Of a DNA stretch of 43,189 bases, positions 2,653-17,241 are shown in pieces; within the stretch, counting starts at the first letter, position 1; the number at the start of each line of letters is the position of its first letter. Both the position numbers and the translations under genes were made by a program. Source of the DNA: a virus; IMG/VR virus record IMGVR_UViG_3300029174_000003, positions 1-43,189 of that record; one strand, given 5' to 3'. Under the pieces are notes generated by a model, which saw only the letters and a program-made list of their open reading frames with translations, did not search any database and had not been told where the DNA came from.

Positions 2653-2818
2653 ACCATTGAGAGATTCAAGACCTATGACAGAGCGACCAATAGCTATACA
2701 GTTAGAGGCTCAATTCTTTAAAACAATACAGCCATTATTAACTAAGAAGCAGCAAGGCAAAGTAATGGGTGCTTTTCGTGAAACACTTAAAAGCTTTATG
2801 GAGTCTACTAATGATTGA
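2642..2818 (+). CDS. Hypothetical small protein (58 aa)
   Basis: Not in the track (under 60 aa). ATG 2642 is preceded by GAGGTG. The frame stays open to TGA at 2816-2818 (MSFKPLRDSRPMTERPIAIQLEAQFF...SFMESTND). Confidence 0.5.
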   Translation: MSFKPLRDSRPMTERPIAIQLEAQFFKTIQPLLTKKQQGKVMGAFRETLKSFMESTND

Positions 2819-3293
2819 CTTTAGCAAAGAAGTGCTTGAGCTAACAAGAGGCAAGACGCCATTCAACCCGTCACGTAAAGCAACAGCTAGGGTCAGAAAT
2901 GTACTACCAATCCCTGTAGCATGTAACTTGTGCAGTGGACCTGTTGAAGTAATAACACATATTGAATTATACGGGCAGTTATATGGCGAGTGGCCATTTG
3001 CTTACAGATGTCAGGATTGTGGTGCTTATGTTGGCATGCATCCATTCACTAATATTCCATTAGGCACACTGGCAGATGCTGAGATTCGCGAGGCACGTAA
3101 GAAGTGCAAGCCTGCCTTTGATAAACTATGGAAGCATCGCCATGACTTTGACCGGTCATCAGCATATGAGTGGCTCGCTCATGAGATGGGTATACCAACA
3201 GAGCAATGCCACTTCGGTTGGTTCACAGCAGAACAATGCTACAAGGCTAAAGCTATATGTGAGAACGCCTGGTGGCTTGGGAGGAATAAATAA
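2811..3293 (+). CDS. Zinc-finger protein of the DUF3268-like phage family (160 aa)
   Basis: Start moved to ATG 2811, overlapping the previous stop. It has two Cys pairs (CNLCSG and CQDCGAYVGMHP), followed by LGTLADAEIREARKKCKPAFDKLW and EQCHFGWF. I recall this pattern from DUF3268-type proteins. Confidence 0.65.
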   Translation: MIDFSKEVLELTRGKTPFNPSRKATARVRNVLPIPVACNLCSGPVEVITHIELYGQLYGEWPFAYRCQDCGAYVGMHPFTNIPLGTLADAEIREARKKCKPAFDKLWKHRHDFDRSSAYEWLAHEMGIPTEQCHFGWFTAEQCYKAKAICENAWWLGRNK

Positions 3294-15756: not shown

Positions 15757-15785
15757 AGCCCGGATTATTTTGTCCGGGCTATTTA
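15757..15785 (+). terminator. Rho-independent terminator (moderate U-tract)
   Basis: agcccgga (15757-15764) pairs with tccgggct (15773-15780), followed by attt. Confidence 0.65.
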
Positions 15786-15815
15786 CATTATCATTATTCT
15801 ATGTATAATTATAAT
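15782..15815 (+). promoter_or_regulatory. Sigma70-type promoter (TTTACA 15782-15787, 16 bp, TATAAT 15804-15809; second TATAAT at 15810-15815)
   Basis: Read directly. The ATG at 15801 used by the ORF track lies inside this promoter. Confidence 0.6.
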
Positions 15816-15842
15816 GTAAATAACAACGTGAGATTGAAGCAA

Positions 15843-16436
15843 ATGACAAACAAAGAGATTATTAGCTATGTATTCAGCGAAGCAGCTAAGTCAAATATTG
15901 AAAAACGTAAAGTTGGTTGCGTAGTAGTTGACGGCAACAATGAAGTCATAGCTAAAGGCTACAACAGAAAGGGCTTTGATAATGCACCTGATGTGCATGC
16001 TGAAAAAGCCGCACTAGCTATGCTTACAGCAACTCCTGTAGGGCCTTGCACAGTCTACGTATCTCAGCCGCCTTGTCCAAACTGTGCTGAATACATCATG
16101 AAACGCTTAGGTTCAACTGTTAAGATTGAAGTTGTTAAAGAGTTCATGAAGTTTGACGGCGACAAATTGAGGTATGACCTGGTGCCACCTTCAGCTATCA
16201 AAGCTATGGCTGACGTATTGACTTTTGGTGCACGTAAGTATAAACCTAACAATTGGAAAGAGTGTGAAGAGCCAGAGCGTTACTTAGCTGCTCTGTACCG
16301 CCACCTGGAATTATGGCGTACAGGTGAAGTTAATGACCAAGACTCAGGCTTCCATCATTTAGCTCATGCTATGACAAACCTGGCATTCATGTTAGAGCTT
16401 AATTATAACCCAACAGAGTGGAGTAAAGAAGAATGA
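15843..16436 (+). CDS. Fusion protein: zinc cytidine/dCMP deaminase domain plus DUF5664 (dGTP_diPhyd_N-like) domain (197 aa)
   Basis: The N-terminal half has VHAEKAAL...PPCPNCAEYI (the HAE/PCxxC zinc site). The C-terminal half is DKLRYDLVPPSAIKAMADVLTFGARKYKPNNW...YLAALYRHLELW...GFHHLAHAMTNLAFMLEL. This matches the pattern I recall for the N-terminal domain of phage dATP/dGTP diphosphohydrolases. Confidence 0.75.
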   Translation: MTNKEIISYVFSEAAKSNIEKRKVGCVVVDGNNEVIAKGYNRKGFDNAPDVHAEKAALAMLTATPVGPCTVYVSQPPCPNCAEYIMKRLGSTVKIEVVKEFMKFDGDKLRYDLVPPSAIKAMADVLTFGARKYKPNNWKECEEPERYLAALYRHLELWRTGEVNDQDSGFHHLAHAMTNLAFMLELNYNPTEWSKEE

Positions 16437-16855
16437 ATCAAGTACCAATTGTAGTTGACTACTTCAGACTAGAAGCTGACTTTCAGCACTTCCTGGCTTA
16501 TTCAAATTATGGTGAGCTAACTGAAGAAGAGACTACTCGTTTGCGTAATGCTTATATGCACGGTGGTGACTACGATTCTGTATCACAGTTTGGTTATGAC
16601 CTTGCTGTGCGTGCTTTAAAGAATGGTCATAAAGTAGCACGTGAAGGTTGGAAGGGTAAAAATATGTTCTTGTTCCTTGTAAAAGAGCGTTCTAGCCGTG
16701 CTTATGAGTTTCCATTAAATACTATGGTAGAAGCAGGTGCTATTGTTAAACGTCGGGCTTACATTGCAATGCGAACAGCTGATGGTGAAGTAGTTCCATG
16801 GCATGCTACTCAATCTGATATGTTGGAACAAGACTGGTTCATCTTACAAAGCTGA
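16433..16855 (+). CDS. DUF2829 (Tad2-like) domain protein with a roughly 55-aa N-terminal extension (140 aa)
   Basis: ATGA coupling to the upstream gene. LAVRALKNGHKVAREGWKGKNMFLFL...RAYIAMRTADGEVVPWHATQSDMLEQDWFIL matches the DUF2829 signature (GW.GK, Y I.M.T..G...PW..SQ.D.L..DW). Confidence 0.75.
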   Translation: MNQVPIVVDYFRLEADFQHFLAYSNYGELTEEETTRLRNAYMHGGDYDSVSQFGYDLAVRALKNGHKVAREGWKGKNMFLFLVKERSSRAYEFPLNTMVEAGAIVKRRAYIAMRTADGEVVPWHATQSDMLEQDWFILQS

Positions 16856-16893
16856 AATCGGTCAGACGGTTGAGGCCAGTTTCAATTTAAATC

Positions 16894-16927
16894 AATCCGG
16901 CTTATATTTGTATAGGCCGGATTTTTT
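16894..16927 (+). terminator. Rho-independent terminator
   Basis: aatccggc (16894-16901) pairs with gccggatt (16916-16923), running into tttttt. Confidence 0.85.
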
Positions 16928-16976
16928 AACATTAAAACGACAGCAAAATTATTTAATTACTGTTTTCATTTTTCTG

Positions 16977-17005
16977 TGTACATAATTTAATAAATATATT
17001 AAAAT
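16977..17005 (+). promoter_or_regulatory. Sigma70-type promoter (TGTACA 16977-16982, 17 bp, TAAAAT 17000-17005)
   Basis: Read directly. It precedes the small ORF at 17036. Confidence 0.5.
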
Positions 17006-17035
17006 ATACATATCAAATGACATGAGGAACTAAGT

Positions 17036-17215
17036 ATGTTTCAACTTCTTGTTACAGTAAACCTTAAAGCTCCAACTGGTAGTGTAGCTATAAGTCAAGT
17101 AGTATTATCATTTACGTCTGTACAGTCTGCTAATACTGCTTATGAAGTTTTAACTTATAAAAGCTCTGCGCATAGAACTTTGTATAATGAACGTTCAGTA
17201 GAAAAACTTTATTAA
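17036..17215 (+). CDS. Hypothetical small protein (59 aa)
   Basis: Not in the track (under 60 aa). ATG 17036 has GAGGA upstream. The frame stays open to TAA at 17213-17215 (MFQLLVTVNLKAPTGSVAISQVV...SVEKLY). Confidence 0.5.
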   Translation: MFQLLVTVNLKAPTGSVAISQVVLSFTSVQSANTAYEVLTYKSSAHRTLYNERSVEKLY

Positions 17216-17241
17216 TAAACCAATTCAAAAGTGAGCTAACA

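Follow-up and report, generated by a model that had tools for sequence, protein, structure and literature searches.

Phage proteins of the Tad2 family act as sponges for immune signalling nucleotides. Between them, the members of this family bind 3' cyclic ADP-ribose (3'cADPR), histidine-ADP-ribose (His-ADPR), N7 cyclic ADP-ribose (N7-cADPR), cyclic dinucleotides and cUMP/cCMP, and they act against Thoeris types I, II and IV, the cyclic-oligonucleotide-based anti-phage signalling system (CBASS) and Pycsar. The pockets of Tad2 can change specificity without loss of function, and 2,783 non-redundant homologues are present in IMG/VR. A further sponge family, Acb4 (PF13876), acts against CBASS (PMC11722364; PMC12265669) and comprises 1,331 homologues in Pfam/InterPro (PMC11722364). 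Sponge domains can be joined in a single polypeptide: the known fusions are Acb4-Tad2 (Pasteurella phage Pm86), Tad2-Sequestin and Sequestin-Acb4 (PMC12265669). In the work of Tal et al., one Acb4-Tad2 fusion was active against Thoeris as well as CBASS, and the authors found the Sequestin sponges through a short, helical, mostly standalone family that recurs fused to Tad2 and Acb4 (PMC12265669). The locus considered here is an open reading frame (ORF) at positions 16433-16855 of the IMG/VR virus record IMGVR_UViG_3300029174_000003; the whole stretch analysed, 43,189 nucleotides in length, is referred to as the window.

The gene probably encodes a two-module phage counter-defence protein, in which an add-on module is attached to the N-terminus of a Tad2-family sponge and which is carried as cargo in a variable genomic slot. 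With a Tad2 domain that adds a member to a known family and a fusion partner that is undescribed, the protein is a new variant of the multi-module sponge theme. The parts of the gene are the following.

16433-16855 (stop codon included), + strand: the whole gene, encoding a 140-amino-acid two-module protein (N-terminal FxHFL module, linker, Tad2 domain); from the ORF list, PF11195 and four full-length homologues.
16433-16465, + strand: leader MNQVPIVVDYF, residues 1-11; from alignments, with a short strand at residues 2-5 in the second AlphaFold2 model.
16466-16567, + strand: 'FxHFL...AYEHG' two-helix module, residues 12-45 (RLEADFQHFLAYSNYGELTEEETTRLRNAYMHGG); from profile search, alignment, hidden Markov model (HMM) and AlphaFold2.
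16568-16594, + strand: low-confidence linker, residues 46-54; the predicted local distance difference test score (pLDDT) is below 50 at residues 44-50 in model 1 and 46-52 in model 2.
16595-16852, + strand: Tad2-like (DUF2829) domain, residues 55-140; from PF11195, PDB matches, AlphaFold2 and Foldseek.
16652-16654, + strand: codon AAG for Lys74 in the GW-N-GK motif, at the site of SPO1 N26 and HgmTad2 N22; from the sequence and its alignment to solved Tad2 chains.

The Tad2-family domain

The ORF carries a domain of the Tad2/DUF2829 family. The Pfam model PF11195 ('Tad2-like') matches residues 55-137 with an E-value of 9e-22 and 77.8 bits (gathering cut-off of 25 bits), covering profile positions 3-72 of 73, a match far above chance level. 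This confirms the DUF2829 signature that an earlier note, made from the sequence alone, had placed at about residues 56-140; the ORF itself, the peptide strings quoted from it and its ATGA overlap with an upstream deaminase fusion are all present as that note described. Among PDB chains, phmmer finds ModTad2 (9eib, E 4e-14), HgmTad2/AcrIIA7 (8kbi, E 7e-13) and SPO1 Tad2 (8sme, E 2.6e-10), as well as M. odoratus Tad2 (8v3e) and SptTad2 (8wjd).

An AlphaFold2 model based on 45 homologues has a pLDDT of about 86-96 over residues 51-140 and consists there of a helix (residues 55-63) followed by β-strands. All 24 Foldseek matches in the PDB with E<=0.001 are Tad2 chains. The best is ModTad2 with His-ADPR (E 1.5e-9, target-normalised TM-score 0.82), and the complexes of SptTad2 with cyclic di-GMP (cGG), HgmTad2 with cADPR and SPO1 Tad2 with glycocyclic ADP-ribose (gcADPR) are also among the top matches. 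Foldseek matches in BFVD are Tad2-like phage proteins of 75-270 amino acids. PHROGs returns families of unknown function alone, matched at the C-terminal end of longer profiles, and in PADLOC the protein has no match, as is expected of an anti-defence rather than a defence gene.

The window protein shares with the characterised Tad2 proteins (SPO1 gp34.65, ModTad2, HgmTad2/AcrIIA7 and SptTad2) the family HMM, the fold (helix α1 and an antiparallel sheet) and 29-37% identity in structural alignments. Like them it is phage-encoded, small and acidic, and it shares a short β2-β3 insertion with SPO1 Tad2 and ModTad2. It differs from them in a Lys that replaces the pocket Asn and in a 54-residue N-terminal addition with a different module. 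Given this family membership, the domain is best read as a sponge for immune signalling nucleotides. Its closest solved relative appears to be the His-ADPR binder ModTad2, with small margins over the others, and no ligand is assigned.

The ligand pocket

SPO1 Tad2 contacts its ligand through W25, N26, W73, D79, T78, I63 and T65, and through waters via D67, H71 and S76 (bioRxiv 10.1101/2023.05.01.538930). The contacts of HgmTad2 are W21, N22, G23, M76, A78, T82, V84, W87, S90, T92 and D93 (bioRxiv 10.1101/2023.11.15.567273). Pocket residues were mapped onto the window protein through HMMER alignments to the solved Tad2 chains, with the SPO1 residue named before that of HgmTad2 where both are given.

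W73, equivalent to W25 / W21: kept.
K74, equivalent to N26 / N22: replaced.
G75, equivalent to G23 (HgmTad2): kept.
M113, equivalent to I63 / M76: kept.
T115, equivalent to T65: kept.
D117, equivalent to D67: kept.
V121, equivalent to V84: kept.
W123, equivalent to W73 / W87: kept.
T126, equivalent to S76 / S90: conservative replacement.
S128, equivalent to T78 / T92: conservative replacement.
D129, equivalent to D79 / D93: kept.

Every listed residue of the pocket for ADP-ribose-based signals is conserved or conservatively replaced, save the one at N26/N22; of the eight SPO1 residues W25, N26, T65, D67, W73, S76, T78 and D79, seven are thus retained or conservatively replaced.

HgmTad2 and SptTad2 possess a second pocket, for the cyclic dinucleotides cGG and cyclic GMP-AMP (cGAMP), which needs an insertion of 35-41 residues (41 in HgmTad2) between β2 and β5 together with R31, S47, F70 and N85. 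The long insertion and the residues of this pocket are lacking in the window protein. According to the alignment, its insertion comprises about 26 amino acids (residues 84-109), near the 24 of SPO1 Tad2, and the pocket sites are represented by V83, R107 and deletions at S47 and N85. Since the insertion is short and R31, S47, F70 and N85 have no equivalents, a pocket of the HgmTad2 type is absent. The suggestion that cyclic nucleotides could also be bound does not hold for binding of this type.

The N-terminal module

The extension of about 55 amino acids, pointed out in the earlier note as an extra segment, is real. It is retained in four homologues (63-86% identity), with a mean column identity of 87%. 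Within the clade formed by these proteins and the window protein, the proportion of nonsynonymous differences (pN) is 0.07-0.20 in the extension versus 0.17-0.29 in the Tad2 domain, and the proportion of synonymous differences (pS) is near saturation at 0.6-0.8. The sole internal Met (M42) is not conserved. It follows from this selection pattern that the extension is translated and is under tighter constraint than the sponge domain, which is itself under purifying selection (ratio of nonsynonymous to synonymous rates, dN/dS, 0.16-0.28 versus relatives). Alignments show that the leader, residues 1-11, is near-invariant across the five clade homologues; it is clade-specific and absent from the module as found elsewhere.

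Relatives of the module were sought among 1.84 billion representative proteins, with residues 1-54 of the five clade members as the profile. This search yielded 12 credible proteins matching positions of about 12-46, plus one false positive with tetratricopeptide repeats; a word-indexed search raised the number of relatives to 32 at E<=0.01. The alignment of the module family is gapless over 38 columns, ten of which are invariant (F, H, F, L, E, R, L, A, Y, G), and its consensus is H.L..DF.HFLAY.NY..LP.EE..RLR.AYEHG. A custom HMM of the module detects the window protein with E 3.8e-20. When the module relatives are included in the alignment, AlphaFold2 predicts helices at residues 8-23 and 31-44 (pLDDT 78-90), then a low-confidence linker at 46-52 and the Tad2 domain. 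It may be speculated that the invariant His, Tyr, Glu, Arg and His residues lying beyond the hydrophobic core constitute a binding site.

The module proteins have no match in Pfam, PHROGs or NCBIfam, the module profile finds nothing in the PDB below E 0.38, and no credible match to two module sequences turns up by tblastn in 50,697 phage records. In seven standalone relatives (P0127, P0130, P0132, P0140, P0148, P0149 and P0151), the module is directly preceded by a conserved Cys-rich segment, C.GC......H..(D/E)C.F.HFL, which suggests a small metal-binding knuckle in that standalone subfamily.

Comparison with other sponge modules and extensions

N-terminal extensions of the DUF2829 domain are not in themselves unusual. 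A profile search collects 7,907 DUF2829 proteins, and the best 120 of these are mostly 138-181 amino acids long; 99 of the 120 start with an N-terminal domain of the pattern 'YIGTK…GYLVEY.DG..SWSPKE.FE.AY'. The module of the window protein is a different and a rare one. The YIGTK-extended proteins (Klebsiella phage KP8, Escherichia phage PE007 and thousands in metagenomes) resemble the window protein in their architecture, an N-terminal domain of 50-75 amino acids followed by Tad2, and differ in that this domain has no detectable homology to the window module. A loose MAFFT/BLAST alignment would allow the extension to be a diverged YIGTK domain, but the hhalign probability is below 1% (0.15%, and 0.06-0.4% with larger profiles of 39 versus 115 sequences), and this candidate was rejected.

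The module was also compared with Sequestin (PF21825), Lockin and Acb5, none of which gave an HMM match; Lockin is β-rich and Acb5 is an enzyme. PF21825 is absent at E<=1 from the window protein, from ten standalone module proteins and from the module proteins of contigs L015, L016 and L018. As a control, the same library finds PF21825 in a protein of L040 with E 1e-16. The module and the Sequestin family (related to crAss001_48; T4 Y16Q) are alike in kind, both being short, predicted helical, phage-restricted, mostly standalone and fused to Tad2 and Acb4. They differ in that no relationship is detectable by HMM, in the size of the core (about 35-40 versus 60-80 amino acids) and in the motif F.HFL.Y / RLR.AYEHG. 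The resemblance is therefore one of behaviour, not of membership. The described multi-sponge fusions are built on the same plan, a Tad2 domain with a linker and a small helical partner that elsewhere mostly stands alone and also occurs fused to Acb4, but the partner module of the window protein matches no described family (hmmscan, E<=1), PF21825 and PF13876 included.

Like the module of the window protein, the YIGTK domain accompanies sponge domains and is uncharacterised; no Pfam model of it exists. It precedes Tad2 in L009:3830-4324 and L010:3662-4375, as in most long DUF2829 proteins. In Rhizobium phage RHph_X3_15 (Schitoviridae), a 252-amino-acid protein (L040:1498-2256) consists of Acb4 (PF13876, E 2e-27), YIGTK (custom HMM, E 4.5e-31) and Sequestin (PF21825, E 1e-16) without Tad2. 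In the N4-like phages KP8 (L009, 3253-4536) and PE007 (L010, 3349-4375), the YIGTK-Tad2 gene and an Acb4 gene just upstream form a small sponge island; KP8 also has a 67-amino-acid Sequestin-like ORF just downstream of the YIGTK-Tad2 gene (phmmer E 1e-4 versus one Sequestin sequence).

Occurrence of the module

The census of fusions comprised scans of IMG/VR and of protein databases with custom HMMs for the module, Acb4 and Tad2, together with a Pfam check. Most relatives of the module are proteins of 44-64 amino acids with little beyond the module itself. In the others the module stands at one end of proteins of 77-254 amino acids, one of which contains DUF551. Fusion of the module to Tad2 is found in the five-member clade of the window protein only.

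The standalone copies lie among small phage or prophage genes annotated without function. One copy is located next to YqaJ/SSB and integrase genes (L011), another before a large-terminase-sized ORF and a P22-type portal (L012) and a third near Dam (L014); in lambdoid-type contigs a standalone copy lies upstream of a NinB-like gene. A weak AcrVA2-like match in a neighbour of the module gene in L013 was not reproduced at E<=0.1 and is not used.

Association of the module with Acb4 takes other forms. In two contigs (L016 and L017), Acb4 (PF13876, E 2e-14) occupies residues 21-100 of a 148-amino-acid protein, and the module lies C-terminal to it at about 108-145 (HMM E 2e-14 to 2e-15). In L018, a module-containing ORF of 254 amino acids lies directly upstream of a PF13876 gene (E 9e-16). 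The module is thus linked to two unrelated sponge families in three arrangements, in addition to an Acb4 neighbour in L002, a relative of the window described below. A sponge link exists in 3 of the approximately 10 lineages with usable context, and by a rough, uncontrolled estimate the probability of chance adjacency between module and sponge would be well below 1%. An apparent Acb4-module fusion in Salmonella phage epsilon15 (tblastn, 97% coverage) was discarded, as the annotated gene is Acb4 only and the alignment overran its stop codon.

The genomic slot

Compared with the DNA polymerases of Edwardsiella phage KF-1 (Kafunavirus), Vibrio phage VPMS1 and Dickeya phage Amaethon, the one encoded in the window shows 63-66% identity, and near-identical DNA was not found among 50,697 phage records. 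Four metagenomic relatives have the same gene order: polA, thymidylate synthase, MazG-like, deaminase-PF18909, the Tad2-like gene and a PD-(D/E)XK nuclease. KF-1, VPMS1 and Amaethon keep the flanking genes (identity of 57-65% for the deaminase fusion in KF-1 and Amaethon, and of 71-80% for the nuclease in all three), but a Tad2 gene is lacking between them. The slot of Amaethon holds two small ORFs without known function in place of the Tad2-like gene. Between relatives, the Tad2-like gene shows 63-75% identity versus 91% for the nuclease and 82-89% for the MazG-like gene. In the relative L002, the deaminase fusion is separated from the Tad2-like gene by an inserted PF13876 gene (91 amino acids, E 1.3e-9), which has stop/start overlaps with both neighbours.

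In Kafunavirus-like podoviruses, the site flanked by the deaminase fusion and the nuclease has variable contents and is a cargo position for sponge genes. Because relatives keep the deaminase fusion and the nuclease without Tad2, and because Acb4 splits the pair in L002, the link to the deaminase is not a functional one, and the ATGA coupling appears to reflect tight packing rather than a metabolic partnership. The earlier note, which called the coupling an unusual context, was mistaken about its significance.

The contents of the interval 16856-17241, which separates the Tad2-like gene from the nuclease, likewise vary: there is an ORF of 59 amino acids (17036-17215) in the window, an unrelated ORF of 79 amino acids in the relative L001 (L001:6589-6828), one of 63 amino acids in L002 (L002:6587-6778) and two small ORFs in Amaethon (L006:10130-10470). 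The small ORFs of this gap in the window, L001, L002 and Amaethon have no Pfam match and may be further accessory cargo.

Gene boundaries and neighbouring signals

The Tad2-like gene is preceded and followed by the following elements.

15757-15780, + strand: terminator-like hairpin, 5' of the deaminase gene; from a consensus scan.
15782-15809, + strand: sigma-70-like promoter with 11/12 matches, 5' of the deaminase/Tad2-like pair; from a consensus match alone.
15801-16436, + strand: upstream gene for a dCMP deaminase-PF18909 fusion, which overlaps the Tad2-like gene by 4 bases (ATGA); from Pfam PF00383 and PF18909.
16420-16423, + strand: GGAG Shine-Dalgarno-like motif, 9 nucleotides 5' of the ATG and within the 3' end of the upstream gene; read from the sequence.
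16894-16928, + strand: 13-bp hairpin with a U-run, 3' of the Tad2-like gene; from RNA folding.

The ATG of the Tad2-like gene (16433-16435) overlaps the TGA of the upstream ORF (16434-16436), and the GGAG motif is its putative ribosome-binding site. The domains of the upstream ORF are PF00383 (E 1e-15) and PF18909, 'dATP/dGTP diphosphohydrolase N-terminal' (E 4e-31). Its true start is probably the ATG at 15843 (MTNKEIIS...) and not 15801, because the promoter-like TTTACA-16-TATAAT ends at 15809 and the homologues have 196-201 amino acids. Folding of the RNA of 16856-16940 gives -25.1 kcal/mol (z = -3.8 versus shuffles), and the hairpin within it is a probable intrinsic terminator closing a two-gene unit. 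Judging from these flanking terminator and promoter signals, the gene pair appears to form a single short transcription unit, and the Tad2-like gene is probably transcribed with, and translationally coupled to, the deaminase-fusion gene.

The fusion of a dCMP/cytidine deaminase with PF18909 is conserved across Kafunavirus-like phages (57-88% identity), and its gene adjoins those of a thymidylate-synthase homologue and a MazG-like pyrophosphohydrolase. The early region of the window encodes a protein with a DUF3268 zinc-finger-containing domain (2769-3293; PF11672, E 3e-33), and most other early-region ORFs tested have no family match. In L001, an extra gene absent from the window (L001:44-445) is located between a Dda-like helicase gene and a gene for a 226-amino-acid protein; its 133-amino-acid product has a weak match to the YIGTK-domain HMM (E 4.6e-5, residues 47-77).

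Alternative explanations

Several observations weigh against a two-module counter-defence protein. Lys74 occupies the site of an Asn that contacts the diphosphate or hydroxyl groups in SPO1 Tad2 and HgmTad2; among the 120 homologues this site is Asn in 118, Asp in one and Lys in one, the window protein, and all four of the closest homologues retain Asn. The W21A/N22A mutant of HgmTad2 does not bind gcADPR (bioRxiv 10.1101/2023.11.15.567273). Being very small and acidic overall, the N-terminal module could be a tag for oligomerisation or protein binding and not bind a ligand at all. Finally, in 7 of the 10 lineages whose context could be used, the module has no sponge gene in its vicinity. The replacement of Asn makes binding of gcADPR specifically less certain, and Lys74 may tune specificity or weaken gcADPR binding. 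The sponge role put forward in the earlier note is supported by the family HMM, the matches to solved structures and the fold, with less certainty for gcADPR as the signal. Taken further, the Asn-to-Lys replacement could mean that the Tad2 domain is retargeted to another phosphate-rich ligand or disabled altogether, the real function being carried by the N-terminal module. The uniqueness of K74 at a ligand-contacting position, the estimate of Li et al. that about 1% of Tad2 homologues have a non-functional gcADPR site and the stronger constraint on the N-terminal half all agree with this. It is nevertheless rather unlikely: the remaining pocket residues are kept, the Tad2 domain is still under purifying selection at the dN/dS given above, Lys is also able to contact phosphates, and Tad2 pockets shift specificity while staying functional.

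The genomic position could be explained differently if the Tad2-like protein were a regulatory or accessory subunit in nucleotide metabolism, serving the deaminase-PF18909, MazG-like and thymidylate-synthase module. The ATGA overlap, the end position in the pol-thyA-MazG-deaminase string, which is conserved in relatives, and the probable shared promoter and terminator would fit such a subunit. However, KF-1, Amaethon and VPMS1 have the same module without the Tad2-like gene, in L002 the gene is coupled to the inserted Acb4 gene instead, and Tad2 genes elsewhere occur in unrelated contexts, for example by Acb4 and a Sequestin-like gene in KP8, which makes this explanation improbable. An AcrIIA7-like anti-CRISPR activity against type II-A Cas9 is more improbable still. 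It could be supposed from the similarity to AcrIIA7/HgmTad2 (8kbi, as above; 9kzr, E 8e-12) and from database records that name some homologues 'anti-CRISPR protein'; binding of AcrIIA7 to Cas9 has never been shown, and the family has been reinterpreted as signal sponges (bioRxiv 10.1101/2023.11.15.567273). Moreover, the relatives of the window phage infect Vibrio, Edwardsiella and Dickeya. Type II-A CRISPR is not known to be typical of these hosts.

Proposed mechanism and significance

For the two-module counter-defence protein, the following mechanism could be proposed by analogy with the solved Tad2 proteins. The C-terminal module (residues of about 55-140) would form a homotetramer, and its inter-protomer pockets would sequester an ADP-ribose-based signal of the Thoeris type made by TIR proteins (3'cADPR/gcADPR, His-ADPR or N7-cADPR), so that the cognate effector would never be switched on. 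The N-terminal module (about 12-45), a separately evolving element modelled as a two-helix hairpin on a flexible linker, would most likely contribute either another anti-defence activity or an additional surface for binding or oligomerisation. The gene is carried as cargo in the variable slot at the end of a nucleotide-metabolism operon.

It is conceivable, though doubtful, that the FxHFL...AYEHG module is the founder of a new phage anti-defence family, either a minimal sponge or an inhibitor binding an immune signal or protein. This possibility arises because the module is mostly standalone, is joined to Tad2 and to Acb4 independently and lies beside Acb4 in L018 and L002. If it is true, a single polypeptide, the window protein, would suffice to counter two signals or systems.

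Tad2 sponges being already known, the domain on its own would merit no more than routine annotation, its interest being limited to a natural Asn-to-Lys variant at a ligand contact. The module, by comparison, is compact (about 40 residues), strongly constrained and so far undescribed. It is a candidate for a further anti-defence family, because fusion to known sponges was the criterion that yielded Sequestin, and it is easy to synthesise. The slot between the deaminase fusion and the nuclease collects counter-defence cargo, which helps to locate more genes of this kind.

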